DNA of 64,000 nucleotides, from contig CAWDVE010000017.1 of the NCBI GenBank assembly GCA_963805625.1, positions 608,001 through 672,000 on the forward strand, written 5' to 3'. The position numbers and the translations under genes are program-made. Source of the stretch: an uncultured Candidatus Rokubacteria bacterium. GTDB taxonomy: Bacteria > Methylomirabilota > Methylomirabilia > Rokubacteriales > DASRDR01. Of this stretch, positions 11,871-59,699 are shown piece by piece (position 1 is the first letter of the stretch; the number at the start of each line of letters is the position of its first letter). The notes beneath the pieces are model-generated. The model was not told the origin of the DNA and did no database searches. It was given only the letters and a program-made list of their open reading frames with translations.

Positions 11871-11900
11871 GACGGGATGTCCGCGGAGCGACAGGCTGAC
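11871..11900. promoter_or_regulatory. Palindromic upstream activator site (putative bEBP UAS)
   Basis: GACG-GGA-TGTCC-GCGGAG-CGACA-GGC-TGAC. Confidence 0.6.
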
Positions 11901-11930
11901 GCTGAGCCCTTGGAGCGACTCGAGACGCGA

Positions 11931-12671
11931 TCAGCCCGACGAGGAAACGGGTCGAATCCGAAGACTGGCTACGAGCGGCAGGTGGTCAGAAGCGACGCGC
12001 GAAAGACGGGTCCGATGAACACGCAGTGACTCGCCCCGAACGGCGTGGTCCCAATAGATGCGATCCAGCGCCCACAACGGCATGAAGGCCGGGTGGGTGA
12101 GCCGGCGCCGCAGGCTGGTGAACTCGCGCCTCAGTGCCCGGCCTACGCGACCCGGGAACCACTCGTTCAGATCACCGATCACGACTCGCGGGCCCGTGCG
12201 GTCGTTCCACAGGATGTGGCGCTCGACCAGCCACTTCACCTGCGCGGCGCGCTCGTGCCCCCTGAGGCCGAGGTGGACGTTGAAGATGTGGAGGGTCTGC
12301 TCCCGGAATCCCAGGTCGACTCGAATTCCGCCTCGAGCCTCGCGCGTCCGCACGGAGAGGTCGAACGTGGCCACGCCCTGGAGCGGCAGACGCGTGAGGA
12401 TGGCGTTGCCGTACGCGCCGTCCGCGCGATGAACGGTGACCCCGGTAACGAACTGCATGCCCAGGTCGCGGGCCAGATGCTCGGCTTGCGCCTCGTAGAT
12501 CTCCTGGACGCCGACGACGTCGGCGTCCAGTTCCCGCACGACCTCAGCAATGCGCCGGAGGCTGACTCGCCCGTCGAGGCCTCGAGCCCGGTGGATGTTG
12601 TACGTTGCCACCCGCACCACGTCGCGAGTGCGGCCGCGTGAGGTGATGTCGGCGGCTGTCGGCCCTGTCAT
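11931..12671 (-). CDS. Endonuclease/exonuclease/phosphatase family (YbhP-like)
   Basis: ATYNIH, VGVQE, NVHLGL, GDLNEW, LDRIY, SDHLP motifs. Confidence 0.88.
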   Translation of the reverse strand: MTGPTAADITSRGRTRDVVRVATYNIHRARGLDGRVSLRRIAEVVRELDADVVGVQEIYEAQAEHLARDLGMQFVTGVTVHRADGAYGNAILTRLPLQGVATFDLSVRTREARGGIRVDLGFREQTLHIFNVHLGLRGHERAAQVKWLVERHILWNDRTGPRVVIGDLNEWFPGRVGRALRREFTSLRRRLTHPAFMPLWALDRIYWDHAVRGESLRVHRTRLSRVASDHLPLVASLRIRPVSSSG

Positions 12672-12733
12672 CAGAGTCTCCGGTTCAAGAATAGGGGGAA
12701 GGAGATGGCTCGGCAACGACTGGCCCGCTGGGC

Positions 12734-12763
12734 GTCAGGGTGTCGTCACCGCGACACGGCGTC
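12734..12763. promoter_or_regulatory. Palindromic upstream activator site
   Basis: GTCA-GGG-TGTCG-TCACCG-CGACA-CGG-CGTC. Confidence 0.65.
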
Positions 12764-12841
12764 GCGGTCGCGCGAGGCGTCGAAGCCAGGCCGAGCGGCA
12801 GGTAATTCCAGCTGCCCATGTGTGCAGCGAATTCGAGGGCA

Positions 12842-12857
12842 TGGCATGCGCCTTGCG
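12842..12857 (+). promoter_or_regulatory. sigma-54 promoter
   Basis: TGGCATGCGCCTTGCG. Confidence 0.7.
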
Positions 12858-12869
12858 GATACCGCCGGC

Positions 12870-13154
12870 ATGACTCGTATGAGGTCACATCTAACAGCGC
12901 AGGGCCAGTCCTTCCTCCGCATCCTGGAGCGTCCTACGGCGCCGCCGGAAGCCCGGGTAGCTGCGGCGGTCTCGCCTCAGGCCGTCGCGCGCCGGAAGAG
13001 ACCGGCATCCCCACGCACGGGACTCCTTCGCCTGGCGCCCCGTCTCTCAGTCGTGACGGGCAACCGTCGGGAACCGGACTGGCGGGTGATCGCGGGCGGT
13101 ATCGGCGCCGCGGTCGCCGACAGCGACGTCGAGGACGCCCCGTGGAGCGCGTGA
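12870..13154 (+). CDS. Hypothetical protein (possibly leaderless)
   Basis: ATG 14 nt after -12 C; stop overlaps next ATG (TGATG). Confidence 0.4.
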   Translation: MTRMRSHLTAQGQSFLRILERPTAPPEARVAAAVSPQAVARRKRPASPRTGLLRLAPRLSVVTGNRREPDWRVIAGGIGAAVADSDVEDAPWSA

Positions 13155-13588
13155 TGCGGAACCAGAGCACCATCGTGAGGATCGGAGGACGGCCATGCGG
13201 ACCTGGCACGCTCCTGGTGACCGTTCTTGCCGTGACCCTGCTCGGAGCCTGTGCGGCCCAGCCCATCGTTACAACCCCGCGAACCTACCAGGGCGCGGGT
13301 GCCGGGGCGGCCGTCGGCGCCGGGGCCGGGGTGCTGATCGACAAGGACAATCGCTGGCGCGGTGCCGCGCTGGGCGCCGCCCTCGGAGGGAGCCTCACCG
13401 AGATGTCCTCGCGCGCCGCGCGGGAGTCCGTGAGCACGAACCAGCCGGTTGCCTACCAGTCGACGGATTGGTGGCAGCGAGTCGAGGCGGTTCCGCAGAC
13501 GCAGAATGCCCGCGGCTGCCGGCAGGTTCACGAGCGCGTGTATCAGGACAACCAGCTCGTCCGCGAGCAAATCCGAGAGGTGTGCTAG
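13154..13588 (+). CDS. Glycine-zipper outer-membrane lipoprotein
   Basis: Lipobox LLGAC; GAGAGAAVGAGAG and GAALGAALGG zippers. Confidence 0.75.
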   Translation: MRNQSTIVRIGGRPCGPGTLLVTVLAVTLLGACAAQPIVTTPRTYQGAGAGAAVGAGAGVLIDKDNRWRGAALGAALGGSLTEMSSRAARESVSTNQPVAYQSTDWWQRVEAVPQTQNARGCRQVHERVYQDNQLVREQIREVC

Positions 13589-13600
13589 GGCGGAGCCCGC

Positions 13601-15116: not shown

Positions 15117-15253
15117 CATGCGGTCTCCCCGCCGTCCGGTCTCCCGGGACCGCCGACGTCCGGCCGGCTGGCGACCGGCTTCGAGGTTCGATCGGCCGGT
15201 CGGCCGGAGCCTCCGGTGAAGGGTCTCCTGCACGCCGGCTCGTCGTGACCAGT

Positions 15254-15283
15254 GCCGTGGTGTCGGGAAGGCGACAAGTTGTC
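15254..15283. promoter_or_regulatory. Palindromic upstream activator site
   Basis: GCCG-TGG-TGTCG-GGAAGG-CGACA-AGT-TGTC. Confidence 0.6.
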
Positions 15284-15318
15284 GTGAGGCGGGGCAGGAG
15301 CCGTTCTCGGGGGACCCC

Positions 15319-15334
15319 CGGCATCGCGCTTGCT
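15319..15334 (+). promoter_or_regulatory. sigma-54 promoter
   Basis: CGGCATCGCGCTTGCT. Confidence 0.65.
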
Positions 15335-15848: not shown

Positions 15849-16801
15849 ATGCAGGAAGAGGTGTTTCGGTGTGAGACGATATCGTCCATGATCGGCGGCG
15901 CGCCGTCCGCCACCGGCAACTGCGCGACCTGGGAAAGCGTGCTCGAGGCGCCCGCCGAGGGGCAGCACGTCGCGCAGCTCTACACCGAGCCGGATTTCCT
16001 CGTGCGCGCGGTGTGTCGGTTCGTCGTGGCGGGGCTTCGCCAAGGCGAGGCCGTGCTCCTGCTGATTAGGGCCACCCACCGGCCGGCGATCGTGAGGCAC
16101 CTCGAGGCCGACGGGTTCGTGATCGACGATCTCTCGCATCGCGGTCAGTTGACGATCCTCGACGCCACCCGGACCTTGACCGAGCTGCTTGTCCATGGGC
16201 GGCCGGAGCGCGCGCGCGTCCAGGCGGTGGTCGGCGGGGCGGTCGAGGCCCGCATGGCCGCGGGGTACACGCGGTTTCGCGCGTTCGGGGAGATGGTGGA
16301 CATCCTCCGTCGGGCGAGCCTCACGATGGCGCTCCAGCTCGAGGGGTTGTGGACCGAGCTGGTGACCGCGCGCCGGATCGCGCTCCTCTGTGGCTATTCC
16401 ATCGACACACCTTCAATCCGGAAGCCTACCGGGGGCTTCTCCAGCGTGTCAGCGCCGCGCACCCGCACGTCGTTCCCGTCGAGGACTATGCGCGGCTCGA
16501 CCACGCCGTGGAGTCGGCCTACCTGGAAGTCTTCGGTGTTGGGCGGGACGCAGGGTTTCTCCGCCGAACGTTCATCGCCAACTATCCGAGACCGGTGACG
16601 ATGCCCGACGCCCAGGCGGCGATCCTGGCCGCGCAGGAGTTCGTTCCGGAGGCCGCGGTCGCGCTCCTCGATCGGATCCGCCACCACTACCACGGCCCCC
16701 CGACGGCGGCCTCCGGGAGGCCGTCGGCGGACGGGCCGCCGGGGCTCGTCAGGTCAAGCGACCTAGCGGGCCGAGGTCGAGATTCAGATCGTCGGGGGTG
16801 A
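15849..16801 (+). CDS. MEDS-domain sensor protein (frameshift near 16405)
   Basis: HVAQLY, GLRQGEAV, RAFGEMVDIL, LEGLW, LLCGY; continuation FNPEAY..HPHVVP in another frame. Confidence 0.7.
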
Positions 16802-17141
16802 GCCCGAACCGGCGTGTCAGCGCGCGGATGGCCTGCTCGAGCCTGAGCAACGCCAGCCCCACGGCCTCGGTCTCCTCGGGTGTCAACGTGCCCTCGTCGA
16901 CCCGCCGGAGGGCCTGGCGCTCGAGGAGCTGGCGTAGGAAGTCGACAAGCGTCAAGACCAGCTGCGCCATCGAGCGCTGCACGTCGTCGGGGTTGGCGTT
17001 CCAGCGCGCAGGCGCGGTGGCGCGGCGCCGCTGGCGCAGCTCCGACCGGAGCGCCCGAAGCTCCTTCGCGCGCACGGTCTTCACAGTCATCCGGCGCCGC
17101 TTCACGGCCACGCGTCGCCCCCGAATGCGTACGGTGGCCAC
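16749..17141 (-). CDS. gvpK: Gas vesicle protein K
   Basis: LVLTLVDFLRQLLERQALRRVDEGTLT..DLNLDLGPLG; start uncertain. Confidence 0.92.
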   Translation of the reverse strand: MATVRIRGRRVAVKRRRMTVKTVRAKELRALRSELRQRRRATAPARWNANPDDVQRSMAQLVLTLVDFLRQLLERQALRRVDEGTLTPEETEAVGLALLRLEQAIRALTRRFGLTPDDLNLDLGPLGRLT

Positions 17142-17794
17142 GGGCCGCTGACAGTGAGACGGAGCGGCGCGAGCTGGCTGGCGGCGCGGGTCACGCGCGT
17201 CCGGTATTGCGCTCTCCGGTCGCGCGACACCAGATGGTAGACGCTGGCGAGGAGCGGCGGGGTGGCATGGCGCTGGACCCGCTCGTCGGCGACGAGGTCA
17301 TCGAGTAGCGCGCGAATCGGATCTAGCTCGGGCACCGTCGCCGCGTGATGAAGGCGCTTGCGCTCGGCGAGGTAACGCGTGCCAGGACCGGGCCGGCCCC
17401 CCGCGGTCTTTCCGACTACGGGGGGGTAAGGCTGGGACGCTTCGCGGGGACCGAAGACGCGGAGGGTCATCTGCTCGTGCCCACGCACTTGGGCCAGCCT
17501 CCCCGCAAGCTCGAGGGCGCGCGGAGCCAGCAGGCGCGCGGCCGCATCCTCGTCGGACGCCACGGAACCGAAGCGCATCGGCAATATGGCGTCGACCGCG
17601 GCGGCGATGCGGCGGACGATGGCGTCGTGGCGCCGCAGAGTCGCGGGCGATGCCGCGGGTGGGGTGTCCATCCGGCCCATGACCACGTGGAAGCCTCGGC
17701 CCGGCAGGACCTCCAAACGCTCTCGGCGGAGCCCGCGGCCCGGGTCGCTCCGCAGCGAGTCGCCGACCAGGGCGTAGAGGTAGAGGACGGTCAC
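17102..17794 (-). CDS. GvpL/GvpF family gas vesicle protein
   Basis: LYLYAL, ILPMRFG, SGPWPPYAF; GTG overlaps upstream stop. Confidence 0.88.
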   Translation of the reverse strand: MTVLYLYALVGDSLRSDPGRGLRRERLEVLPGRGFHVVMGRMDTPPAASPATLRRHDAIVRRIAAAVDAILPMRFGSVASDEDAAARLLAPRALELAGRLAQVRGHEQMTLRVFGPREASQPYPPVVGKTAGGRPGPGTRYLAERKRLHHAATVPELDPIRALLDDLVADERVQRHATPPLLASVYHLVSRDRRAQYRTRVTRAASQLAPLRLTVSGPWPPYAFGGDAWP

Positions 17795-18036
17795 TTCCGG
17801 CCCTGCCGCGGCGTGACCCGATCGGCGGCGCACAGGAGCACCGATAGTCGCAGATAGACGAGGTTGACGTCGGCCAGGGCGAGCACGACGTCTCCCGACA
17901 CCACCACACCCTTGGTGAGGACGTGGTCCACGATGTCGAGGAGCGACGCGTCGGAATCCGGCGCCCGCGCGCGGGACCGCCGTGTCCGCCGCCGCCCGGT
18001 CAGAGACGCCCGGCGACGAAGCTGTACGGAGGCCAT
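17791..18036 (-). CDS. gvpS: GvpA/J/S family gas vesicle protein (GvpS-like)
   Basis: SLLDIVDHVLTKGVVVSGDVVLALADVNLVYLRLSVLL. Confidence 0.85.
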   Translation of the reverse strand: MASVQLRRRASLTGRRRTRRSRARAPDSDASLLDIVDHVLTKGVVVSGDVVLALADVNLVYLRLSVLLCAADRVTPRQGRK

Positions 18037-18833
18037 GGGCCCGTTAGCCGGACGTGGAGCCCCTTGTCCGCCGCCTGTGCCGCCTGCGCCCGGACCGCCT
18101 GTCGGAACAGCGCGGCTCGCCCGGTTGGCACCAGGTAAGCTGCGTCGAGGAGCAAGGCCGGCCTGTCGTCCACCGCTATCGGGGGGCGCTGGCGGGCGGC
18201 GTCGGCGTGTCGGGCGAGCGCCCGGTGAAGCGAGGTCGCCGCCGCTCGCGCCCCGCCGGTGAGGCCGCGCGCCGTTTCGCGCTGGCGGCGACGAAGTTCA
18301 AGGAACCGAGTTCCGGGGCTCAGCCCGGCCGTCTCTCGCCGCGCCACCGCGCGCGCGCGTCGCGCCGAAGCCCCGCCTCCTGTCTCGAGCCGCGCCTGGA
18401 CCCCCCACTCCGTCCGGCCGGCCACGCTGGTCAAGCGCCGCGCGATGGCGACGCGGCGCCGGCGCACCTGGGCGAGCGCACGCCCGTCGCTCGAGAAGAG
18501 GGTCAGGAGCCGGAGAGGGAGGACAGCATGCCGCCGCGCACAGTGGGTGACGACTGCCGAATGGGCGACCGCGCATCTCGACACCGCGTCGAGGTCGCGG
18601 ACGACCCGCGCCAGCGCGGCCTCCCCGTATCGGGAAACCGGCGCGTCGGCGACGATCAGCCAGAGCGCCTGCCCGGCGGCCAGCGCCCGGAGCTTCCCCG
18701 TGCCCGGGAGCCCCCCAGCGCCTCGGAGATCCGGTGGCCGGGCGCTCCGCACGACGCAGTAGACGTACGTGGCCGCCTGTGCCGCCGCGGCGGGGCGGCC
18801 CGGCTTCGTCGAGGCCTTTCGCGCGCCTGTCAC
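18000..18833 (-). CDS. GvpL/GvpF family gas vesicle protein
   Basis: TYVYCVV, VLPLRL, EWGV, LDAAYLV, TGPWPPYSF; GTG overlaps ATPase stop. Confidence 0.88.
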   Translation of the reverse strand: MTGARKASTKPGRPAAAAQAATYVYCVVRSARPPDLRGAGGLPGTGKLRALAAGQALWLIVADAPVSRYGEAALARVVRDLDAVSRCAVAHSAVVTHCARRHAVLPLRLLTLFSSDGRALAQVRRRRVAIARRLTSVAGRTEWGVQARLETGGGASARRARAVARRETAGLSPGTRFLELRRRQRETARGLTGGARAAATSLHRALARHADAARQRPPIAVDDRPALLLDAAYLVPTGRAALFRQAVRAQAAQAADKGLHVRLTGPWPPYSFVAGRL

Positions 18834-20839
18834 GACGCCGCCCGGGTCCAGGTCCGCGCCCAGCCGCGGAGGGCCTTCACACCCCTGGGTGGGGGGGCCA
18901 CGGCCGGCGCCAGCAGCACGGGCAAAGCCAGCCCGGGTCGAGCAACCGCGCGCAGCCCGCGCACCTCCGCAGACTCCGTGCGCGTGGCTGCCGCCCTGGT
19001 GACGCCGGCCGGGGTGAGCGCGTTCACGATCAGGGCGGACACAGTGAGACCCAGCGCGTCGAGCCGACGCAGGAGACGGATCGTCTCGAGGCGGGGCAAG
19101 GCGGCCGCTCGGGTGACCACGACCACGCGCGCCTGACGAGGGTCGGCGAGGAGGACCTGGAGCTGCCGGAGGCCGCGCGAGAGCTCGACCAGGTCCGAGG
19201 CCAGGGCGCCAAGACCGAGGATCTGCCGGTACTTGAGAAGCGTGGTCAGGAGCGCGCGCACCCACTCGAGGGCCAGCCCGGGCAGTGCCAGGAGCCGGAG
19301 CGTGTGGCCTGTGGGCGCGGTGTCGACGACGACGAGGTCGTGGCGCGGCAGGGCGGCGCCTGGCGGGAACAGGGTCTCCGTCACGGTCAGCAGCGCGCAC
19401 AGCTCGTCCAGGCCGCCCGGAGCGAGGTCGAGCAGGTCGCGGGCGACGGCCCGGTCGAAGGCGACGTCGAACCGCGAGCCCCCCCGGATCGTGTCGAACA
19501 GCTCGTCCACCGCCGCCCGGTAGCGCTCGCGCCGCGCGGCGAACGCGCGGCTGGCGTCAAGCTCGCGAACGCCGAGGGCGGCCGGGCCGGCGGGCACGCG
19601 GCGCTCCTCGTCGCCGACTTGTGTCGAGAGGACGTCGCCGAGGGAGTGGGCGGGATCCGTGGACAGGAGCAGGATGCGGCGGGTCGGTGCCGCGTCGCCG
19701 AGCGTCAGCGCCATCGCGGCGGCGCACGTCGTCTTGCCGACCCCGCCCTTGCCGGTGATCAGAAGGAGTCGGATGCCGGCCGGCGCGACCAGCCGCGGCC
19801 AGGTGACGGTGATCTCGCGGGACCGGGCCGCCCCGTGGCCTCGAGCCGCGCGCCGCGCCGGCACTCTGGTCAGGAGCTCGCGACCGCGGGAGCGTCTCGC
19901 AAGACTCCTGACCAAAGATCGGAGCGCCACCGGCCCGCGGGGCTCCTCGATCTGCTCGGGGACGAGGCGCACCGGGTGATCGGGGAACGCCGCGTGAACC
20001 GCTGCGATGGCCTCGCGCTCGGCGACGACTCGCCGACGCTCGAACGCGCTGGGGCCCTCCCGAGTCGCAGTCACTCGGTTGACGAGGATCTCGTCAATCG
20101 GGATGCCGCTGGCCTCCAGGTCACGGACGGCGTCCCGCGCCTCCTCGACGGCCAGTGTCTCGGGCAGGACGATCCACCGGAACCGGCAGCGGTCGCGATC
20201 GCGGAGGAGACTGGCTAGCCGGCCGGCCTCGGCGTCGATCTCGGCCACGAGGCGATCCGCCGCGTCGTTCCGGTCTCGGCCCGAGAGCCGCGTGAGCAGG
20301 AAGTGGTGCTTGGCCAGCATCTCGCCGAGCACGGCCGCGATCCTTTGCAGCGCCTCCGGAACGGCCAGGAGCCTGAGCGTGTGCCCGGTGGGCGCGGTGT
20401 CGACGACAACGGTGTCGTACCGGCCGGCCGTCGCCACCCGCGTCAGTTCGAGGAGCCCGCCCAGCTCGTCCACCCCAGGGAAGCTCAGGCCAAGGAAACG
20501 GTCGACGTCCGCGTCGTCGAGATAGGTACCTCGCTCGGCGATGAGGTGCAGCGACTCCCGGCGGGCCCGGAGCCAGCGGGCGAGGGCCCGGTCGGCATCG
20601 AGCTCCAGGGCGTCGAGCGCCGCCCCGCCGACCGGGATGCGCGTCACGCGCGCCCCCACCCGCTGGCCGAGCGCGTCACCCAGCGAGTGCGCCGGGTCGG
20701 TGGATACCACGAGAGTTCGCTGGCGAGCGCCGGCCGCCGTGAGCGCGAGCGCTGCCGCCATGGTGGTCTTGCCCACGCCGCCCTTGCCACCGATGAACTC
20801 GTAGGATGGTGCCCGCCGCCGGGAGGCCGGCCGTCTCAC
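18830..20839 (-). CDS. Tandem two-domain ArsA/GET3-family ATPase
   Basis: Two GKGGVGKTT P-loops, two STDPAHSL, two DTAPTGHT; GTG overlaps gvpG stop. Confidence 0.92.
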   Translation of the reverse strand: MRRPASRRRAPSYEFIGGKGGVGKTTMAAALALTAAGARQRTLVVSTDPAHSLGDALGQRVGARVTRIPVGGAALDALELDADRALARWLRARRESLHLIAERGTYLDDADVDRFLGLSFPGVDELGGLLELTRVATAGRYDTVVVDTAPTGHTLRLLAVPEALQRIAAVLGEMLAKHHFLLTRLSGRDRNDAADRLVAEIDAEAGRLASLLRDRDRCRFRWIVLPETLAVEEARDAVRDLEASGIPIDEILVNRVTATREGPSAFERRRVVAEREAIAAVHAAFPDHPVRLVPEQIEEPRGPVALRSLVRSLARRSRGRELLTRVPARRAARGHGAARSREITVTWPRLVAPAGIRLLLITGKGGVGKTTCAAAMALTLGDAAPTRRILLLSTDPAHSLGDVLSTQVGDEERRVPAGPAALGVRELDASRAFAARRERYRAAVDELFDTIRGGSRFDVAFDRAVARDLLDLAPGGLDELCALLTVTETLFPPGAALPRHDLVVVDTAPTGHTLRLLALPGLALEWVRALLTTLLKYRQILGLGALASDLVELSRGLRQLQVLLADPRQARVVVVTRAAALPRLETIRLLRRLDALGLTVSALIVNALTPAGVTRAAATRTESAEVRGLRAVARPGLALPVLLAPAVAPPPRGVKALRGWARTWTRAAS

Positions 20840-21162
20840 CGGCGGGAGACGTCCCGGTCGCGATCCTCGTCGAAGGTGTCGTCGCCCACGACGCTCGCCT
20901 CCACCCCCGTGACCCGGAAGGTACCGGGCGGCTCCGCGCGGCCCTGCTGGCGCTCTCGGATTTCCCGGATCCGGGCAAGCAGCTCGCGCTCGATCTTGAC
21001 GAACTGGCGCTCGGAGATCTCGCCGAGCTCGAGGCGCATCTGCGCTGCCAGGAGCTCCTCGCGCCACGCGGTGTCGTCGGCCATCTCGGCCTCCACTGCG
21101 GCGGCGATCTTCCCCAGGACGAACTTGAGACTCCCGACGAGGAGCGTGTCGAGAATGATCAC
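20836..21162 (-). CDS. gvpG: Gas vesicle protein G
   Basis: Helical, LELGEISERQFVKIERELLARI; position after gvpF. Confidence 0.8.
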   Translation of the reverse strand: MIILDTLLVGSLKFVLGKIAAAVEAEMADDTAWREELLAAQMRLELGEISERQFVKIERELLARIREIRERQQGRAEPPGTFRVTGVEASVVGDDTFDEDRDRDVSRR

Positions 21163-22151
21163 TCGGACTCTCTCGCGCGCTCCAGCTTCAGACGGATGTT
21201 GACGAAGTTATACGGGGGCCAGGGTCCGGTGTAGCGGAAGTTGAGCTTGTCGTAGAGGGCTCCGACCTCCTTGACCTTCGCGTCGAAGGCCGTTTCCTTG
21301 TCGCGGGACACGAGGAAGGCCGCGTTCATGATCATCTTCTCGCCGATGGGCTTGTTGGCGCGGGCGGCCACCGAGACGTCCCGCAGCTGGTTGAAGATAT
21401 CGGCCACGTACTGCTCGCTTCGCGTCTGGAGGGCCGCCTCGATCTGCCGGCCGTACTGCATGCGTGCGAAGTAGGTCGACCCCGGGACAGCGGCGATCTC
21501 GTTCTTGAGCCGGCGGATGTCCTCGTCGTCGTTCTCGATCTCGCGGATCATGACGTCGCGATCCCACAGCACCTTGAGGCCGAACTCCACCTTCTCCTGC
21601 ATCTTGTCCAGTACGTCCCGGAAGGCCTCGTACGCGCCCCGCAGAAGCTCCACGATGTCGTCGCGTGTCTTGAAGACGGTCCCGAAGGACATCGGGATCA
21701 CCGTGAAGGTCTTCATCACCGTCTCGTTGACCCGCTCGTGGGCGAGGACGTTCTCTCGCGTCGCGTCCAGCACCTCTTCCGGGGTGTCGGAGATGACGGC
21801 GGCGATCTCGCGGAAGCTGACCGTCTGGACCTCGGTCGGCTCGCTGCCGAGGCCGATCGCCCCGAAGCGACGCGGCTCGGCACTCCGGATGATGCAGTAG
21901 ACGTACTTGGCTCGGGCCCCCCCGGGCCGCGCCGCCGGGAGGGAGTCGGCCGGGCCGGACGACTGCCGGGCAGGCGGCAGTGCGCCGCGAGTGCCGAGGC
22001 CCGGTGACGCGGCGATTGGCGGCGATCCACGTTTCCGGGGGAGGGGGAATTTGCCCGGCGCGACGCGCTTCACCGCTCCAGAGCGCCCCGAGGGTGTTGG
22101 GCCCGATGTCGCGGCGCGACGGGCCCTCGGCTTCGAGGGCTTCTTCTTCAC
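21159..22151 (-). CDS. gvpF: GvpF/GvpL family gas vesicle protein with basic N-terminal extension
   Basis: KYVYCII, VLAHERV, VIPMSFG, MNAAFLV, TGPWPPYNF; RBS GGAGG. Confidence 0.9.
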   Translation of the reverse strand: MKKKPSKPRARRAATSGPTPSGRSGAVKRVAPGKFPLPRKRGSPPIAASPGLGTRGALPPARQSSGPADSLPAARPGGARAKYVYCIIRSAEPRRFGAIGLGSEPTEVQTVSFREIAAVISDTPEEVLDATRENVLAHERVNETVMKTFTVIPMSFGTVFKTRDDIVELLRGAYEAFRDVLDKMQEKVEFGLKVLWDRDVMIREIENDDEDIRRLKNEIAAVPGSTYFARMQYGRQIEAALQTRSEQYVADIFNQLRDVSVAARANKPIGEKMIMNAAFLVSRDKETAFDAKVKEVGALYDKLNFRYTGPWPPYNFVNIRLKLERARESE

Positions 22152-22155
22152 CGAA

Positions 22156-22608
22156 TCACCTCCCGCTCTTCGGCCGAGCCTTCGGCGCATCGAGGATACG
22201 TCGAATGGCATCCATGAGTTGGTCGGGCAGGCAGGGCTTCGTGATGACGAGATCGCAGCCGGCCTCGCGGGCGGCCTGCGCGTGCTCGGGCAGGGCATGT
22301 CCGGTCAGGACGACGATCGGAATCTTCTTGGTTCGGGGGTCGCGTCTCAGGCGCCGCGTGGCCTCCCAGCCGTCCATCACCGGCAGCGACAGGTCCATGA
22401 CGATGACGTCGGGCAGGAGGGTCGTCGCTTTCTCCAGGGCTTCGGCCCCGTTCTCGGCCTCCGCGATCCGGTAGCCCGAGAACTTCAGGAACAGCACGTA
22501 GATGGTGCGGTTGTCCTGGACGTCGTCCACGATCAGGACGAGCGGTCCAGCGTCGCTGCCGACCGGCTCACCCGCGTGCCCGGCGATCTGCGCCCTCTTG
22601 CTCGTCAT
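22156..22608 (-). CDS. Single-domain response regulator (DivK/CheY-like)
   Basis: LIVDD, MDLSLPVMDGW, LTGHA, TKP. Confidence 0.9.
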   Translation of the reverse strand: MTSKRAQIAGHAGEPVGSDAGPLVLIVDDVQDNRTIYVLFLKFSGYRIAEAENGAEALEKATTLLPDVIVMDLSLPVMDGWEATRRLRRDPRTKKIPIVVLTGHALPEHAQAAREAGCDLVITKPCLPDQLMDAIRRILDAPKARPKSGR

Positions 22609-48136: not shown

Positions 48137-48166
48137 GTCATGTCGTCGCGCCGGTGACACCATGAC
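48137..48166. promoter_or_regulatory. Palindromic upstream activator site
   Basis: GTCA-TGT-CGTCG-CGCCGG-TGACA-CCA-TGAC. Confidence 0.6.
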
Positions 48167-48246
48167 GACGTGGTGAACGGCCCTGGCGTGGCTGCCTCCG
48201 CACCGTTGTCGTGATGGGCACTGGCCTGGAAAGTCCCGCGCGCCGG

Positions 48247-49957
48247 TCAGCGCAGAGCGAGCCGCCGCCGCGGTCGGCTCGGGCACCCGCCGGAGCAACG
48301 CCAGCTCCTGGAGCTGGGCGCACGCATCCGCGAGGCTCACGGTCACTCGGTCGGCTCCCGCCGCCACCATGGCGTCACGGGCAGCCTCGTCGCCTCCGTC
48401 GGCGCCCCACCACCCCACCACGATCGGAAGGTCGGGGAAGCGCGCGCGCAGGCGCTTGCAGAGGTACCGGAGATGCAAAGGGTGGCCCGCACCCGCCAAG
48501 GCGCCGATGAGGACCGTCGCCGGCGCGCGAGCCTCCACGACCGCAATGGCCTCGCTGACCAGGAGATCGGGCGAGGCGACGTCCACGGTGAAGCGACTGG
48601 GATCGAGGCGTTGCCTCAGCATCTGTAGGGCGATCTCATCTGCCTCCTCGTGCGCGGGAAGACCGAGGACGGAGGTGGCCGGGCGGAGCGCCGGTTCGGC
48701 CGGCGGCTCCGAGAGGTCGAGCTCCTCGATGAGCTCACGGGTCGTCCGCTCGACGAAGCGCGCGTCCACATCCGTGATGCGGCCCCGCCCGTGGTCGCGT
48801 TGCGCGTGGTTGAGGGCGGGCACGAGGACCTCGTCGTAGACGTCCTGACCCGGGTGCGACGCGACGTAGTCTTGGACCAGCGTCGCCGCCTCGCTCTCGT
48901 CTCGGGCCACCAGGCGTTGGTAGTAGCTCCGGGCCGGCCCCATGACGGGCTCGTCCGACATGAGGACGGACACGATCTCCAGATCTGGCACGTACTTCGC
49001 GAGGACCACGAGGCAGACGGTCAGCGGCGTCGCCAGCGCGAGCCCGACCGGCCCCAGACCCACGTCCAGAAGGCCACCGCCACCAGGAGCCCCACCTGGG
49101 ACACGCCGGCACTCTGGCTGTAGAGATACGTCTCCAGGACAAGATTGGAGAAGAGCTCGAGCGCGACGAAAAGCCCCGCGATCAGGACCGGCTGGAGCCA
49201 GCCGTCGAACACCGCGAGACCGACGAGCGAGACGATGAGGGCGGCCGCCCAGGGGCCGACGTACGGGATGAAGCGGAGGACCGCGGCTAGGGAATGACGC
49301 GGATCAGGCGATCTCGCAGTTGGAGCCGCTCCAGGAGCATGAAGATCACCAGCACGAGCACCAGGCCGACATTGCCGAGCGCGCCCAGCACGACGGGAAG
49401 CTGCCAGAAGGCCGAGGCCTGGGGCTTCACCACCACGGGCACGGGCTTCTCGGCCGGCTTGACCGGCTTGTCTTCCTTTTGGAGTTCTTCGACGACCTCC
49501 TTCGTGGCCGATTGCACCTTCTCGATCACGCCGCCCCGGCTCGCCCCGCGGACCTCGGCGATCTTCTGCTTGAGGTTGTCCCGATAGCTCGGGATCTCTT
49601 CGCCAAGGCTGGCGGCCTGGAGCGCGAGCGCCCAGGTGAAGGCGCCCAGGACCGAGAACGTCAGGATCACGACGAGGACGACCGCCGCGGCGCGGGGTAA
49701 CCGTCGCTCGAACACGCGGACGATCGGGTTCAGGACGAAGGTGAGGAGGCCCGCGACCGCCAGGGGGACCAGAAACCCGCGCCCGAGGTAGAGGGCGCCG
49801 ACGGTCATCAGCACGCCGGCCAGCAAGATGACCGACCGGACCCACGGAGGGCGGGAGCCTGCCCGCGGCTGGCTCCGATGCCGTGGCCCCGTGTTGGGAC
49901 CGCCTGTGGCTCGGTACTGGCAGCGCGGCGACCTGAAGGGGACACGGATTCGCTCAT
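48247..49957 (-). pseudogene. AI-2E family transporter with C-terminal cytoplasmic domain; frameshifts and an apparent internal deletion
   Basis: LVPLAVAGLLTFVLNP, LRDRLIR, RFIPYVGPW, LATPLTVCLVVLAKYVP split over three or more frames. Confidence 0.75.
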
Positions 49958-49985: not shown

Positions 49986-50028
49986 TCACCACCCGAACGC
50001 GCAGCACGCGGTTGAGCACTTGTCGCGC

Positions 50029-50058
50029 GTCGGAGTGTCGCGGCGGCGACACCATGGC
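50029..50058. promoter_or_regulatory. Palindromic activator site between divergent sigma-54 promoters
   Basis: GTCG-GAG-TGTCG-CGGCGG-CGACA-CCA-TGGC. Confidence 0.65.
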
Positions 50059-50138
50059 GTGACGCGTCGCGTCGGTCGTCACGGCCGCCGCACATCGTAT
50101 ACGGCCGACATTCGAAGAGGCCGCTCCGCGCTCGCGGC

Positions 50139-53491: not shown

Positions 53492-53869
53492 TCAGCGCCG
53501 AGTCGTGACCGGACTGGGCCGGTCCAGGAAGCCGACGGCCGCCAGGACGCCGCCGAGTACCGCGTGGAGCCAGATGTCGTGGCCCCCGAGAGGGACGAGA
53601 CCGAACCCCGTCGGCGTCAGGACCCCCACCACGGCCAGCGTGAGGTACGCGATCCCGCCGATCCGGCAGTACGCGGTTGCCCGGTTCGGAGTGCCGCCGG
53701 CGACCAGCCCCCACCCGCCGAAGGCGAGGTGCACGAGGTTATGCAGCACGTTGACGGGGAAGAGGCCGAGGAGGAGCTCGCTGGACATCGAGAACGGGGT
53801 CGTGACGAGACCGAGGACCCCGACCAGCAGGAACACGACGCCGAACGCGCGCGCCGTCGTCTGAGTCAT
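53492..53869 (-). CDS. DUF4383 family membrane protein
   Basis: GVVFLLVGVLG, LLGLFPVNVLHNLVHL, DIWLH. Confidence 0.8.
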   Translation of the reverse strand: MTQTTARAFGVVFLLVGVLGLVTTPFSMSSELLLGLFPVNVLHNLVHLAFGGWGLVAGGTPNRATAYCRIGGIAYLTLAVVGVLTPTGFGLVPLGGHDIWLHAVLGGVLAAVGFLDRPSPVTTRR

Positions 53870-55957
53870 GGTTGTCCTTCCTGCCGGGGAGGGGTCGATT
53901 CCGGCGGCCCCGGCTCCGCAGTCAGGATCACGGCGCGGAGCACCTCGGCCACGCTCCAGGCCTGGGCGATGCAGCCGCGGGGCGTGAACGGCGGCTCGGC
54001 GTCGAAGATCTCGCTGATGGTGCCGACGCACGCCTCGTCGAGATGGGACCAGAAGCGATCGAGGAGCTGGCGGGCGTGCGCGCGGTCCTCGGGGTGAGCC
54101 CGGAGCCACGCGTCGACGAAGGGGCCGATCAGCCAGGCCCAGACCGTGCCCTGGTGGTAGGCGGCATCGCGCGCCCGCAGGTCGCCGTAGTACGTCGCCT
54201 TGTAGTCGGGATGGCCCGGGGCGAGCGAGCGCAGGCCGACCGGCGTGAGCAGGCGCTCGCGGACCACCTCCAGCACCGACGCCCAGCGCGTCTCGGTCGA
54301 GCACCGGATGAGCGAGCGAGATGGCGAGCAGCTGGTTGGGCCGGCAGGCGGGATCGTCACCGCTCTCGCCGTCGACCACGTCGTACAGGTAGCCGCCGTC
54401 GGCGTACCAGAAGCGCGCGTTGAACGACCGTGCGGACCTGGTCCGCGCGTGGTCGACAGCGGCCGCCGCCGCGTCGTCGCCCTGCTCCTCGCGCATCCAC
54501 CCCTCGAGCAGCCGCAGCGCGTTGTACCAGAGCGCGTTGATCTCGACCGCCTTGCCGCGCCGCGGCGTCACGACCCAGTCGTCGACCTTGGCGTCCATCC
54601 AGGTGAGCTGGTACCCCTCCGCGCCCTGGCGGAGCAGGCCGTCCGCCGGATCGACGCCGATGCCGAAGCGCGTGCCGCGCACGTGGTGGTCGACGATGTC
54701 GACGCAGCGTCGGGCAGGAGGAGCCGGAGCGTCTCGCGGTCGCCGGTCGCCCGGAGGTAGCGGTCGAGGGCGTGGAAGAACCAGAGGTGGCGTCGGCCGT
54801 GTGGTAGAGGCCCTCGCGCTGTGCCCTCGGGGAACATGTTCGGAATCAGGCCGTCGCGGACGTAGTGGGCGAAGGTGCGCAGGATGTAGCCGGCCTCCAC
54901 GTGGCGCCCGGTCAGCAGGGTCAGCCCTTCGAGGCTGATCATGGTGTCGCGGCCCCAGTCGGTGAACCAGTGATAGCCGGCGATGATCGTGCGCACCTCG
55001 TCGCCCGTGGCCCGGACGCGCGCGGTGTCGGCCACGCGACCGGCCGGCGTGACGACGAACTGGTCGGCCGCCAGCACGAGCTCGGCCGCCGGGCCCGGTG
55101 CGGGCCCGGGGATGGGCGGCCGCGAGGAGTCGCCGCCGGCGCTCCTGCTCGGCCCGCAACGCGGTCTCCGGATCGAGCGCGTCGATGGCCTCCCAGGGCT
55201 CGGTCGAGGCGACGATCGTGCCCGTGCCCTCCGGCTCGAGCGTCATGCGGAAGTAGCCCGGGCTCCAGAGGTCGCCGGTCGCCTCGTATCCGCGACTCCG
55301 CTCCGAGGGATACAGGACATGCTGGATCGTGTGACCCGAGACGCGGAAGGCGGCCGGCGGGCCGTGTGTCCGCAGGCGCAGCCGCGGGAACTCCGGGCTC
55401 CCGAACAGCTCGTAGCGGTCCCCCAGGACCGTGAGGCCATAGGGACCGGCGAGGGGATCGCTCACCGGGCGTTCGTGCGGGCGGAAGTGGACGGCCGGCC
55501 GCACCTGGAGACTGACCGGCCCCGGGGCCGAGACGAGTCGATAGCTGACGTGGACGGTGTTCTGGCGGTACGGAACGAGTAGGCGCTTCTCCAGGACGAG
55601 CTGGCCCAGCTCGTACCGCCACACGGGCAGGCCCAGCTCGAGGCGGAACTCGGCAAGATCCAGCACCTCCGCGGGCTTTCCGGCCCCGGTGGCCTCCCAG
55701 CCAGCGGTCGTGGCGGCGACGCCGCCGTCCGGCAGGCCGAGCCGCTCGTGCAGGTGGCTCAGCATGTTCATCCGGCCGAGCGGCGCCGGCAGGGCGGCGA
55801 TCAGGAGCCCGTGGTAGCGCCGCGTCATCAGGGTGGACACCGTGCCCGACGCGTAGCCGCCGAGCCCGTTCGTGACCAGCCATTCGCGAGTCGCCGACCG
55901 GCCCCGCTCGGGATCGTCGCGACCGGGCCACGGGATCCGGCGGATCAGATCGCTCAT
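53866..55957 (-). pseudogene. Amylo-alpha-1,6-glucosidase (glycogen debranching, GDE N-term + GH133-like), frameshifted
   Basis: EWLVTNGLGGYASGT, RRYHGLL, IIAGYHWFTDWGRDT, TWMDAK, KAVEINALWY, YHQGTVW, AQAWS. Confidence 0.88.
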
Positions 55958-57836
55958 CGCGAGGGCCGAAGACGAGGGCGGTGTGGCCCGGCAGGACCCA
56001 GCCGTCGGCGGGATCGACCTCGGGCGTGCCGGCGCCGCCGTAGCGGATGGCCTCGCTGGACCAGAGGAGGCTCCAGCGCATGCCCTCGGGCGGCGCGAGC
56101 AGGGGCTCGGCGACCGCCGGGAGGGCGAGATCGCGCCCCAGGTTGAGGCAGAGCAGCCGATCGTCGGGATCGAGGCCCACGCCGAAGAACCGGAGGACGA
56201 GCGCCTCGGGTCCGAGGACGGCGCCGTCCACGCCGCCGCTGCCCTGCGTGCGGAACACCGGGTCCTCCCGCCGCAATCGGAGGAGGTCGACGTGGAGAGC
56301 ATAGGCTGCGCCGTTGCGCTCGCGCTCGCCGAGGTCGAGCTTCGAGCGCTCGAAGGTGAGGCGATCGGCCGGATCGGGTAGCGCTGCCTGCGCCTCGGCC
56401 CCGGCCAGGCTCGGAAACTGGGCCAGGAACTCCGCGCGGCCCACCCGCGCCAGCTTCGCCAGCTCGGGCGGGAGGTCGGCGAAGTAGAGGAAGGGGCTCG
56501 AGGCGGCGAACTCCTGACCCTGGAACAGCATCGGGGTCGCCGGGCCCAGCAAGAGCAGCGCGGTCATGGCCCGGTATCGGCCGGGGCTGGTCAGCCGATG
56601 GCAGCGGAGCCCTGCCGCGAGTTGGCGACCTGGTCGTGGTTCTGGAGGAAGTTGACGAAGGACGTCGGCCCGCACGTCCCAGCGCGGGCGTGCCGCGCGG
56701 CTTCCCCTGCCATGCGTATCACTGCCCCTGGTAGAGATAGCCGCACTTGACGGCCGAGATCAGCTCCTGGGGCGTCCCGGCGTAGTCGCTGAAGTACGCC
56801 TCGTCGCGCCCGGTCAGGGCCACCGTGGCGGAGTGGTGGAAGTCGTCGTTCCACAGGGCGTCGAGCCCGTAGCCGCCGGCCGCCACCGCGCGGACGAGCC
56901 TCACGTCCTGCGGCTCGTTCTCGGCGACGAGGAACACCGATCGGCGGCCGGCGCTCTCCCGCGCCCGGCGCGCGATCGCCGTCAACATGTGCTCCGGGGA
57001 ATCGTCGTGGATGTCCTGCGTGGCATCCAGCCGCAGCCCGTCGAGGTGAAACTCGTCGATCCAGTAGCCGGCGTTCGAGACGAAGAACTCGCGGACCGGC
57101 CCGGAGTCCTCGCCGTCGAAGTTGATCGCCTCGCCCCAGTCCGTCGGTGACGCGTGGCTGAGATAGTCGGCGAGCGAACTGGCCGAGGTAGTTGCCGTCC
57201 GGGCCGAAGTGGTTGTAGACGACGTCGAGGATCACGCCGAGGCCGACCGCGTGGGCCCGATCGACGAAGCGCGCGGAAGTCGTCGGGCCGGCCGTAGAGC
57301 CGCGTCGGGGCGAACAGGTCGACGCCGTCGTAGCCCCAGCCGAATCGCCCGCGAAATCGGCGACCGGCATCACCTCGATCACCGTGATCCCAGCTCGCGC
57401 CAGCTCCGGCAGCTCGCGGCGGCCGCGTCCCAGGTGCCCTCGGGCGTGAACGTGCCGATGTGCATCTCGTAGAGGACCTGGCCCTCGCGGCGTGACGCCC
57501 GGCCACCGGTCATCGGTCCAGGAAAAGGCGGCCGGATCGACGACCTCGGACGGGCCGTGGGGTCCGTCGGGCTGGAACCGCGACGCCGGATCGGGGCAGG
57601 CCGGCCCGCCGTCGAGGCGGTACGCGTACCTCATCCCGACTTCGACGGCGGGAACGAGGCCGGAGTGGTACCCGTGGGGCTCCGCGTCGAGGCAAACCCG
57701 CCGGTCGTCCAGCTCGACCTCGACCTGCGCGGCCCCTCGGTGCCCACACGCGAAAGTGCACGCCCCCCGTGGGGGCGAGCTCTGCTCCAATCGGCAGGCG
57801 TCGCCAGGTCGGAGGCGAGCTGCTTCGCGTTCGCAC
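55954..57836 (-). pseudogene. treZ: Malto-oligosyltrehalose trehalohydrolase, frameshifted
   Basis: FRVWAP, PDPASRFQPDGPHGPS, YEMHIGTF, WGYDGV, DVVYNHFGPDGNY, WNDDFHH, QNHDQVAN, PMLFQGQE. Confidence 0.9.
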
Positions 57837-57963
57837 GGATGGTCCTGGAGGGCAACTTCCGTACCAGACCACCGGACCGTGGTCAGACGACCGGCACACG
57901 AAACACTCTTCCGCATTCGCGTCGTCGGCGCTCCAGCGTCGAGCCGGTGCCGAACCGAGGGGC

Positions 57964-57993
57964 GCCATGGTGTCGTCGCCGCGACAGCGTGAC
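57964..57993. promoter_or_regulatory. Palindromic upstream activator site
   Basis: GCCA-TGG-TGTCG-TCGCCG-CGACA-GCG-TGAC. Confidence 0.7.
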
Positions 57994-58110
57994 GCACGGG
58001 CGGCGAACGCGGGCGCATCGGGATCGCCGAGAGTCTGGTCATCCGTCGCGTCCTCGGTGATGGCGGGCGCGGCAACCCGACGTGGTCAGCCCGCGAAATT
58101 CACGGACGAC

Positions 58111-58126
58111 TGGCATCTCGATTGCT
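58111..58126 (+). promoter_or_regulatory. sigma-54 promoter
   Basis: TGGCATCTCGATTGCT. Confidence 0.7.
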
Positions 58127-58182
58127 CCTTCTGACTCGCAGAGCTTGCGCACTACACCGTGAAGCACCGAGGAGGATGGAGC

Positions 58183-58873
58183 ATGAAGAGTCGAATCTGT
58201 GCCTTTCATCAGCGCCGTGGCCCTCGCGGGCGCGTTCGGGGCGACGCACGCCAACGCCCAGTCGCCGCCCAAGCCCGTCGCCGCCACGGGACAGCCCGCG
58301 AAGAACGCCGAGCAGATCAATGACACGAAGCGCTTTGCCGAGCACACGGGGCTGTACCGCGCCAGCTCGGTCGTCGGGAGCGGCGTCAAGGACCTGGCCG
58401 GCAAGGACGCCGGGAAGATCGAGGATCTGCTCCTCGACCACCGTGGCCACGTCGGGTACGCCGTCGTGTCGTTCGGCGGCTTCATGGGCATCGGCGACAA
58501 GCTGTTCGCGGTGCCGTGGGACGCGGTCATCGTCGATCGCGAGAAGCGAACCGTCTACGTCGACGTGAAGAAGGAGACCCTCGAGCGGTCGCCGAGCTTC
58601 ACGGCAGACAAGTACCCCGATCCCAATGACCGGGAGTGGGGTCGCGACGTCCGCAAGGCCTGGAGCGACGCGTCCATCACCGCTGCGGTGAAGACGAAGC
58701 TCGCGGGGACGTCGCCCGCCACGCTGCTGAAGGTCAATGTCGACACGACCAACGGCATCGTGCAGCTCAACGGCACCGTCGACAACGACAAGACGCGACA
58801 GCGCGCGACGGAGCTCGCCCGGCAGGTCGACGGCGTGCGCCGCGTGGTGAACAACCTCAAGGTGCAGGGCTAA
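58183..58873 (+). CDS. Secreted PRC-barrel + BON domain protein
   Basis: RASSVVG..GKIEDLLLD..YAVVSFGGFMGIGDKLFAVPW; DASITAAVKTKL..VVNNLKV; probable +1 error near start. Confidence 0.85.
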
Positions 58874-58993
58874 CGCCCGGCGCCGCGAGGCCTCTCCCGC
58901 GGTCTCGGCAGGGCCCGGGCCACGCCGCGAGGCGTCCCGGGCCCTGTCCGCTCCTTTCCATCGGTCGTCACTCGCCGTCGAAGGAGGTCCTCG

Positions 58994-59641
58994 ATGGCAG
59001 CGCACACCACTCCCAAGACTCCGAAGGCCTACCGGAAGCGCGAGTTCGACCTCAAGGGGCTCGCCGGCATCTCGGACGCCCAGATCGAGGAGCACCTGAC
59101 TCTCTACGCCGGCTACGTCAAGCAGGTCAACGCGCTGAACGAGGAGCTGGCCGAGATGCTCGCTCGCGGCAAGGCGTCGGGCAAGAGCCCGGAGTTCGCC
59201 GAGCTGACGCGACGCCTGGGCTTCGAGTACAACGGAATGATCCTTCACGAGTACTACTTCGGTAACCTCCGGGCCGCCGCCAATCCGAAGCCCCCGGCGG
59301 GATCGGGGCTGACGGAGGCCCTCGTCGGGTCCTTCGGATCGGCCGATCAGTGGCGGACCGACTTCCAGGCAATCGGCGAGATGCGCGGGGTCGGGTGGGT
59401 GATCCTGTTCCAGGATCCCGTGACCGATCGCCTCACGAATCACTGGATCACGCTCCACCAGGACGGCGTGCCCGCGGGGTTCAAGCCGCTCCTGGTCATG
59501 GACGTCTGGGAGCACGCCTTCATGCGGGACTACAAGGCGACCGAGCGCGACCAGTACATCGAGGCGTTCTTCCGGAACATCGACTGGTCCATCGTCGAGA
59601 CCCGGCTCCAGGAAGAGCGCGCCGTCCGGCCCGCAGCCTGA
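58994..59641 (+). CDS. Fe/Mn superoxide dismutase family protein
   Basis: Metal ligands EEH, ILHEYY, DVWEHAF; RBS AGGAGG. Confidence 0.9.
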   Translation: MAAHTTPKTPKAYRKREFDLKGLAGISDAQIEEHLTLYAGYVKQVNALNEELAEMLARGKASGKSPEFAELTRRLGFEYNGMILHEYYFGNLRAAANPKPPAGSGLTEALVGSFGSADQWRTDFQAIGEMRGVGWVILFQDPVTDRLTNHWITLHQDGVPAGFKPLLVMDVWEHAFMRDYKATERDQYIEAFFRNIDWSIVETRLQEERAVRPAA

Positions 59642-59667
59642 GCATCCGTCACGGTATTCCCTCGACT

Positions 59668-59699
59668 CGTCACGGTGTCGCCGCGGCGACACCGTGACG
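59668..59699. promoter_or_regulatory. Perfect 32-bp palindrome, consensus activator site
   Basis: CGTCACGGTGTCGCCGCGGCGACACCGTGACG. Confidence 0.75.

Follow-up and report, generated by a model that had tools for sequence, protein, structure and literature searches.

We analysed a 64,000-bp stretch of DNA from an uncultured Candidatus Rokubacteria bacterium (the window; contig CAWDVE010000017.1 of assembly GCA_963805625.1, G000:C17:608001-672000), in which a palindromic element of 32 bp recurs between genes. Judging from sequence, this element is probably the upstream activator sequence (UAS) of an NtrC-type bacterial enhancer-binding protein (bEBP) encoded at 37595–38962, which would switch on a sigma-54 regulon of general-stress-type genes. 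This would provide a regulator, its predicted site and a regulon of about 40 sites for an uncultured lineage for which we found no regulatory description. The source genome (7.27 Mb, 69% GC) encodes one RpoN and about 35–40 sigma-54 activator domains.

The 32-bp element and its coupling to sigma-54 promoters

The original prediction had described a 30-bp palindrome of the type GTCA-N3-TGTCG-N6-CGACA-N3-TGAC. The palindrome proved to be real, but its consensus comprised 32 bp and four arms, CGWCA-N3-TGTCG-N6-CGACA-N3-TGWCG, with outer arms reading CG(A/T)CA and TG(A/T)CG; it can be written as two 13-bp palindromes (CGWCA-N3-TGWCG) placed 19 bp apart. A matrix built from 12 window copies, with two rounds of refinement (threshold 18 bits), yielded 52 sites in the genome and none in the reversed genome. 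Contig C26 carries a 30-kb near-duplicate (87–99.6%) of the window at about 35–66 kb, including an identical activator gene, and represents either a strain variant or a duplication. It was therefore taken out of the key counts, leaving 43 sites. Almost all sites (49 of 52) were intergenic, as had been proposed, although outside the Pfam-confirmed set genes were called only roughly, with a codon model of our own making. Within the window, a pattern search tolerating up to three mismatches found 14 matches, whereas 100 shuffled sequences gave 0.15 on average and 2 at most. Of the roughly 14 copies listed before, 13 scored 23–38 bits and the one at 46456/7 turned out to be a variant with a 2-bp left spacer. 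The fixed 6-bp centre was borne out as well (46 sites of at least 20 bits, compared with 0–4 when the spacer was changed by 1–3 bp), and the copy at 59668–59699 is indeed a perfect 32-bp palindrome. The motif had been regarded as a feature of one island; it is present there, but 27 of the 43 sites lie outside the island (C17:619–678 kb), so that it has to be considered genome-wide.

For comparison, we used 151 genomes of the phylum, including seven of the source genus. All four arms carried similar information, and in relatives the outer and inner arms were mostly identical. The element is thus best read as two 13-bp palindromes. Arms beyond these four were found neither in 28 sites of the source genome nor in 91 sites of relatives. 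A NorR-type reading of the units (GT-N7-AC) was discarded since it fitted only 2 of 86 units.

Given its symmetry and the one perfect copy, the element might be suspected to be a repetitive extragenic palindromic (REP) repeat or a terminator or other RNA hairpin. In the 91 sites of relatives, N3 complementarity did exceed the shuffled value (0.43 against 0.32, p = 0.0005; centre 0.38 against 0.32), a set, however, that is biased towards perfect matches and consists of related sequences. The 43 own sites showed no such excess (0.30 against 0.30 and 0.33 against 0.33), their spacers being fixed in length and free in sequence. Moreover, 20 of the 43 sites fell between divergent genes, an arrangement seen in 650 of 2665 intervals (p = 0.002), and only three between convergent genes. 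With both hairpin covariation and placement behind genes failing in the own sites, in agreement with the earlier view of the motif, we consider a REP or terminator role disfavoured and its probability next to negligible.

Coupling to sigma-54 promoters had originally been based on GG-N10-GC sites. As a promoter test, this bare pattern is empty because 88.8% of random intergenic positions pass it, and we rejected it; the coupling itself survived a test with a –24/–12 matrix, which was written from the consensus, untrained and applied at a threshold of 8 bits. Matches 20–130 bp away were found for 36 of the 52 sites as opposed to 6.2% of 3000 random intergenic positions. The promoter pointed away from the motif at 28 of the 43 sites and towards it at five. 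Where a sigma-54 site followed, the motif centre was mostly located about 77–164 bp before the predicted transcription start. Among 106 motif–promoter pairs of relatives, spacings peaked near 43, 54, 65, 75, 87, 97 and 111 bp, with a best period of 11.5 (R = 0.59; 0 of 1000 jitter nulls), these pairs not being independent. The 34 pairs of the source genome gave R = 0.39 at 10.5 bp (p = 0.005 at that period), a value which 120 of 1000 nulls reached when the period was fitted. The element thus occupies the position of a bEBP-dependent UAS, upstream of –24/–12 promoters in a genome that encodes RpoN as well as a GAFTGA activator travelling with the site.

The kinase–activator pair as predicted reader of the element

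This activator forms a pair with a sensor histidine kinase (36120–37598, + strand), which comprises two predicted membrane helices on either side of an extracytoplasmic domain, followed by HAMP, HisKA and HATPase_c. The extracytoplasmic domain has a PAS-like (PDC/Cache-type) predicted fold (predicted local distance difference test score, pLDDT, 76). Its nearest solved domain was that of WalK (E 8e-6), and this fold comparison gave no clue to a ligand. The bEBP itself (37595–38962, +) consists of a receiver (REC) domain, an AAA+ domain with the GAFTGA motif and a Fis-type helix-turn-helix (HTH) ending in ILGISVRTLQR.

The occurrence of the motif followed that of the activator. A loose motif pattern matched 24–46 times per genome in the seven genus members and 0–7 times elsewhere in the phylum, and activator orthologs (E ≤ 1e-160, at least 61% identity) were detected in 38 of the 150 other genomes. 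All genomes with at least four sites carried an ortholog, one of them as a fragment only. When the genus was set aside, at least four sites were found in 15 of 32 ortholog-positive and in 0 of 63 ortholog-negative genomes of the order, a count that omits two genomes with a fragmentary ortholog (5 and 0 sites); the 47 genomes outside the order had 0–2 matches. Activator copies 91–95% identical were present in named Rokubacteria/Methylomirabilota records. In addition, site and gene adjoin each other: in many distant genomes the motif is located about 20–80 bp from the 3′ end of the activator gene, between that gene and a sigma-54 site. A further copy frequently precedes the kinase gene. The window differs in this respect, as its sigma-54 site directly after the bEBP stop (38964–38980, +; 19.1 bits) has no motif nearby. 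The next gene, a single-domain receiver (39029–39442, +), is the one that most often comes first behind motif and sigma-54 site in distant relatives: among 75 first open reading frames (ORFs), called roughly, it accounted for 17 and treZ for three.

The recognition helix supported the same assignment. Sites of at least 18 bits occurred in 10 of 15 stretches around genes with an RTLQR helix and in none of the 80 loci (605 kb) that surround other bEBPs. SVRTLQR was invariant in 19 aligned orthologs (64–100% identity), and the activator helix was the only RTLQR among the 36 HTH_8 helices of the genome. In a quick tree, in which the 94% ortholog L305 stood in for the window's own protein, absent from the input, RTLQR activators formed one clade (Shimodaira–Hasegawa-like approximate likelihood ratio test, SH-aLRT, 99). 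A sister pair in genome G121 carried a helix changed to SERTLYR/SKRTLYR, and no site was found in its 19.9 kb. The activator scored below the NCBIfam equivalog cut-offs for AtoC (455/714), NtrC (427/559) and ZraR (403/760), as well as for GlrR, NifA and NorR. A metagenome ortholog scan retrieved only generic bEBPs of 40–50% identity, which served as a negative control; a 50%-cluster search added no named relative, and a search with the HTH region returned generic names only. In the PDB, the HTH sequence matched NtrC1, ZraR and Fis, not PrrA. RTLQR is also present in a RegA-like regulator of Pandoraea, in which 18 of 37 residues are identical to the activator HTH (best family NF033791, below cut-off). 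Together with the resemblance of the 13-bp unit to the RegR box (see below), this offers a structural reason for the pairing of activator and site, not a proof, and links DNA recognition by bEBPs with that by RegA.

Based on these data, we propose the following model. The membrane kinase would sense an extracytoplasmic cue and phosphorylate the activator, two dimers of which, one per 13-bp unit, would bind through the SVRTLQR helix and oligomerise. The bound activator would then loop to the sigma-54 holoenzyme on one helix face and open the promoter at the expense of ATP, and a single site could serve two divergent promoters. The site at 36057–36088 (25.5 bits) may have an additional function. 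Its sigma-54 site (35967–35983, –) is 74 bp away and directed at a gene for a WXXGXW protein, and its last arm overlaps the predicted –35 of the kinase–activator operon, whose extended –10-like element, TGCTAAACT (36102–36110, +), belongs to a predicted sigma-70-type promoter, adjoins the kinase start and is conserved in six close relatives. Since the last arm lies on the expected –35, autorepression of the operon is predicted alongside activation of the divergent sigma-54 promoter. The single-domain receivers of the regulon may serve as phosphate sinks or as relays. The kinase–activator pair would control only few neighbouring genes in most Rokubacteriales possessing it, and in the source genus its control has likely been extended to csbD and to 24–46 sites of stress and dormancy genes.

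Could another protein read the same site? One candidate is any of the roughly 35 other bEBPs, for example as a single dimer on a central NifA-like TGT-N10-ACA. This core is exact in 13 of the 43 sites, and three strict matches outside Rokubacteria, beside nifA or nifH with sigma-54 sites, indicate that the same 32-mer can go with a different helix. Yet the motif adjoins the RTLQR gene in many distant genomes and tracks its presence, the four arms are similarly informative with outer arms equal to inner ones in relatives, and the window activator differs from NifA in its helix and does not reach the NifA cut-off; we therefore regard another bEBP as distinctly improbable. A sigma-70-type regulator was considered as well. 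The 5-6-5 geometry of the core is CRP-like, and the CooA consensus (TGTC-N8-GACA) given in excerpts of PMC7306483 was matched in 13 of the 43 sites. Of the two CRP/FNR proteins profiled, however, one was not found in any of six congeners, and the other was not found in two congeners (97–99% complete, 26 sites each) and was present in many site-less genomes. A response regulator of the RegA/PrrA type would fit the likeness of the unit to the RegR box and the 32-mer of Pandoraea, which occurs once per genome without a sigma-54 site, but all NF033791 matches in the source genome are receiver-only and below cut-off, and its sole REC–HTH_8 protein has a different helix. Either protein would also leave the orientation-specific link to sigma-54 unexplained. 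This explanation is largely refuted and very improbable. The NtrC-type activator thus remains our preferred binder.

Predicted targets and the putative stress role

The original prediction counted twelve copies near a promoter and one at about 265 bp; we found twelve with matches 34–116 bp away, one at 263 bp and one, at 28774–28805 (25.8 bits), without a sigma-54 site of at least 8 bits within 300 bp. Three copies instead of the two reported lay between divergent promoters. At the left end of the series, the copy at 11870–11901 (23.8 bits) is 82 bp from a sigma-54 site (11772–11788, –) directed towards a YegS_C lipid-kinase-type gene. The copy at 12733–12764 (34.5 bits) is followed after 77 bp by a site (12841–12857, +) with a small lipoprotein-like ORF, DPBB_1, MlaC and DUF1344 among the (+) genes, and that at 15253–15284 (25.4 bits) after 34 bp by a site (15318–15334, +) before hypothetical and MEDS-domain genes. 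The distant promoter (25900–25916, –; motif 26179–26210, 26.6 bits) precedes the gvp cluster (16749–25488), which contains three GvpL/F genes, GvpG, GvpK, three Gas_vesicle-family genes and a tandem ArsA-type ATPase and is interrupted by a PAS kinase and a receiver. Further (–) targets are an M48 peptidase followed by a PA2171-like hemerythrin (motif 30618–30649, 23.1 bits; sigma-54 site 30538–30554, 64 bp) and a sugar-phosphate nucleotidyltransferase with glgX and an encapsulin-like gene (35183–35214, 37.7 bits; 35064–35080, 103 bp). The latter (30669–31319), at the end of the glgX operon, encodes a Family 1 encapsulin shell protein that is above cut-off and N-terminally short.

To the right of the kinase–activator pair, the copy at 42887–42918 (32.1 bits) is 88 bp from a site at 42783–42799 (–). 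The shortened variant (46456–46486) is flanked by divergent sites at 46381–46397 (–) and 46555–46571 (+); it scores –0.1 bits at fixed spacing, its counterpart on C26 being intact with 33.2 bits. The pattern search listed in its place a weak extra copy (45676–45705, 13 bits) within a called ORF. The motif at 48136–48167 (27.8 bits) is 113 bp from a (–) site of 8.8 bits before csbD, and that at 50028–50059 (31.0 bits) is located between divergent sites at 79 bp (+) and 42 bp (–), the latter on the side of an AI-2E transporter. The copy at 57963–57994 (36.6 bits) likewise serves two directions, with sites at 57851–57867 (–; treZ in pieces and a debranching enzyme) and 58110–58126 (+; a PRC-BON protein and superoxide dismutase). 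AI-2E transporter, debranching enzyme and treZ (47924–49845, 53492–57990) are each split over several frames, indicating pseudogenes or assembly indels, and the 1-bp shortening of the variant motif may share this cause. The perfect palindrome (59668–59699, 36.5 bits) is 75 bp from a site at 59774–59790 (+), followed by an ORF at 59864–59938, a lipoprotein-like ORF, DUF1328 and a DUF1344-like gene. The first of these, unannotated and 24 codons long, would encode a hydrophobic small membrane protein behind a strong ribosome-binding site and is conserved in RNA contigs of relatives. These RNA runs were assembled contigs with 5–9% of words present, and their low cover of motif intervals was not used as evidence.

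Predicted targets beyond the window include a treS-like gene, TopIB, three single-domain receivers, a cardiolipin-synthase-type phospholipase D (PLD) and BrkB, CBS, PRC, SRPBCC and glyoxalase proteins. Sites without a clear promoter lie ahead of ligD, of a gene for a GH15 enzyme and of a stressosome operon of the rsbRST type. The stressosome operon (G000:C16:357446-364185, partly L292) encodes RsbR, an RsbS-like STAS protein, an RsbT-like protein and kinases, with a strong motif 177 bp away. Genes for trehalose and glycogen metabolism, gvp genes and stressosome operons are linked to general-stress regulons. Furthermore, csbD and ku-ligD are listed as EcfG general-stress targets in excerpts of PMC7083833, and CsbD is SigB-dependent according to excerpts of PMC9912610. 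Typical general-stress targets are thus present behind the sites, and this gene content suggests a stress role of the regulon. The promoters are of the –24/–12 type, not those of a dedicated alternative sigma-70-family factor.

It is conceivable that the activator binds as proposed but governs a narrower programme, concerned with the envelope, dormancy or development, alongside an RpoS-like sigma factor. The genome encodes such a factor (291 bits, cut-off 379) along with a second RpoD-like factor (scan of 11 of its 13 sigma-70 proteins). Small exported or membrane proteins are numerous among the targets, and in distant relatives the gene that comes first is mostly the single-domain receiver or one for a lipoprotein, an ABC solute-binding protein or a nucleotidyltransferase. 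Against this stand the sites preceding csbD, BON/PRC, DUF1328, glgX, treZ, treS-like, superoxide dismutase, PA2171-like hemerythrin, TopIB, ligD and stressosome genes, and no SigB, SigF or SigG scored above cut-off in the genome in a search that left out PhyR/NepR. We thus consider a narrower programme unlikely and retain the general-stress-type regulon.

The csbD loci hinted at the history of this regulon. The motif was present at csbD in four of four congeners and at none of 26 other loci, 20 of which had a sigma-54 match of at least 8 bits (two without GG). Sigma-54 sites without the motif outside the genus suggest that csbD was under sigma-54 control before the activator took it over in one genus. 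In two other genera (g12 and g16; L334, L336–L341, L343, L346, L348, L356), the csbD sigma-54 site follows a different conserved palindrome similar to YCTAC-N3-GTARG. This second palindrome was not enriched over controls in the 151 genomes or the source genome and was rejected as a candidate; we do not claim a second regulon.

Several observations weigh against the interpretation developed here. Coupling, spacing in relatives, co-occurrence, adjacency and helix support an enhancer read by the activator at 37595–38962, but the claim that one bEBP drives the whole island goes too far: at five sigma-54 sites of the window (4152, 9744, 28291/28312 and 38964), the 300 bp upstream contain no motif. 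Conversely, 14 of the 43 sites lack a sigma-54 match of at least 8 bits within about 140 bp, among them strong ones before ligD, the GH15 trehalase-like gene and the stressosome operon. The sigma-54 matrix is noisy on its own (1061 matches of at least 11 bits in the reversed genome, 571 in the real one), and of 353 noisy candidate promoters across the genome, the motif was found at only 28. Phasing in the source genome is not significant once the period is fitted, and the pairs of relatives include orthologous promoters. Two ortholog-positive genomes (G086, G093) are devoid of motif matches, the co-occurrence p-values are overstated because the genomes are related, and the cross-genome profiling of alternative binders was confined to the two CRP-family proteins. 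As regards the two dimers, masking left at most a weak enrichment of lone 13-mers (18 against about 9), with similar peaks at other spacings, so that the four-arm unit looks like the selected entity, and the units fit the RegR box only loosely (7 of 86 with at most one mismatch, 63 of 86 with at most three, mostly 2–4). As regards the stress role, the RpoS-like factor, although below cut-off, means that the regulon may be one stress branch and not the master, and the 26 csbD loci without the motif include 11 genomes with an ortholog.

A wider conclusion, which we put forward tentatively and at slightly less than an even chance, is that in this genus sigma-54, together with a single two-component activator with a RegA-like helix, takes the place of SigB, EcfG or RpoS in governing general stress and dormancy, which would add another architecture to those known for such a response, and that a small local circuit of the order captured 24–46 promoters including csbD in this genus alone. 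If the stress role holds, a gene set of the SigB/EcfG/RpoS type would depend on sigma-54 activation driven by ATP, which is unusual for a general stress response. As such activation allows very tight off-states, it would be suited to a dormancy switch. The step from 0–7 to 24–46 sites in one genus would provide a clean natural case of regulon expansion.

Distribution beyond the lineage and relation to known systems

A strict scan for the 32-mer, with one genome per species, returned 95 stretches. Of the 80 titled ones, 43 belonged to Rokubacteria/Methylomirabilota, 22 to Pandoraea and 11 to other taxa, and four were unlabelled. Pandoraea genomes contain one conserved intergenic copy each (L048:4001-4032 and 21 other titled loci) without a sigma-54 site; the RegA-like regulator with the RTLQR helix (L166:1483-2025) is a plausible binder of this copy. 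Three matches to the full 32-mer fell into nif clusters (L106:4001-4032, L119:4001-4032, L121:4001-4032), between nifA and sufB, before nifB and before nifH, with sigma-54 sites present. They are most readily interpreted as NifA sites, which hints at a doubled layout with a 19-bp period in some NifA sites as well. The matches in Pandoraea and nif clusters indicate a DNA word common to several Fis-type HTH proteins. Apart from a few other-labelled records with the same gene pair (L082, L110), only Rokubacteriales were seen to have a multi-site regulon coupled to sigma-54. In an Eisenbacteria record (L192:8509), the strict motif lies 122 bp from a sigma-54 site, and an HTH query found no RTLQR activator in that genome. 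In a Polyangiaceae genome (G154; L193:10221, L194:3427, L196:1527, L197:628, L198:4039), we observed a related repeat in eight copies. Its spacers are A/T-rich, some copies have a third unit that keeps the 19-bp period, and no sigma-54 site accompanies them.

Activation by a bEBP from a UAS is a textbook mechanism. Large bEBP regulons are also known from excerpts of PMC9765219 and PMC4641369, the latter describing the sigma-54 regulome of Desulfovibrio vulgaris (2015), in which palindromic sites are mostly within about 100 bp upstream of –24/–12 promoters and some are promoterless. DVU3305 is labelled "general stress response" in the same excerpts, yet lists two operons. Our literature search retrieved no account of this motif or of a sigma-54 or stress regulon in Rokubacteria/Methylomirabilota, nothing joining bEBPs with CsbD, trehalose or desiccation and no bEBP general-stress case like the present one; RegPrecise and subscription journals were outside its scope, and the logos of PMC4641369 and PMC3333781 could hold a similar site.

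Among known systems, the pair resembles NtrC, AtoC and ZraR in that a REC–AAA+(GAFTGA)–Fis HTH activator is encoded beside its kinase. It differs from them in the rigid four-arm 32-mer, in 24–46 sites of stress-type content and in scoring below all equivalog cut-offs. With RegA, PrrA and RegR it shares a Fis-type HTH with RTLQR and, in a loose fit, a 15-bp unit with half-sites of the type GCGAC...GTCGC around a short spacer, the RegR box being GNGRCRTTNNGNCGC in excerpts of PMC5506826. RegA, however, lacks an AAA+ domain, whereas here the helix resides on a sigma-54 activator, and the unit occurs twice, at a 19-bp period, without a central TT. The inner 16 bp fit the NifA UAS, TGT-N10-ACA in excerpts of PMC4999443 (see also bioRxiv 10.1101/2025.03.04.641427), which is likewise sigma-54-coupled and whose three nif-cluster examples match the whole 32-mer. 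In contrast, the outer arms are required here, the NifA helix reads TPRQIGY (L106/L119), and the targets are not nif genes. With Nla28S/Nla28 of Myxococcus xanthus, as described in excerpts of PMC9765219, the system has in common a two-component bEBP, a large, autoregulated and starvation-linked sigma-54 regulon and tandem half-sites. The Nla28 half-site CT(C/G)CG(C/G)AG, however, forms direct repeats, and its targets belong to a myxobacterial developmental programme and not to a csbD/trehalose-type set.

The targets overlap with those of the RpoS response and, as far as the excerpts above describe them, of the SigB and EcfG–PhyR responses (csbD, ligD, oxidative-defence and envelope proteins). 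Unlike in these responses, the promoters are sigma-54-type and need an activator, and no stress sigma factor is implicated by promoter sequences. Compared with all of these systems, what would be new is the specific regulator–site pair, the rigid doubled RegA-like site, the placement of general-stress-type genes under sigma-54 and the genus-limited expansion.

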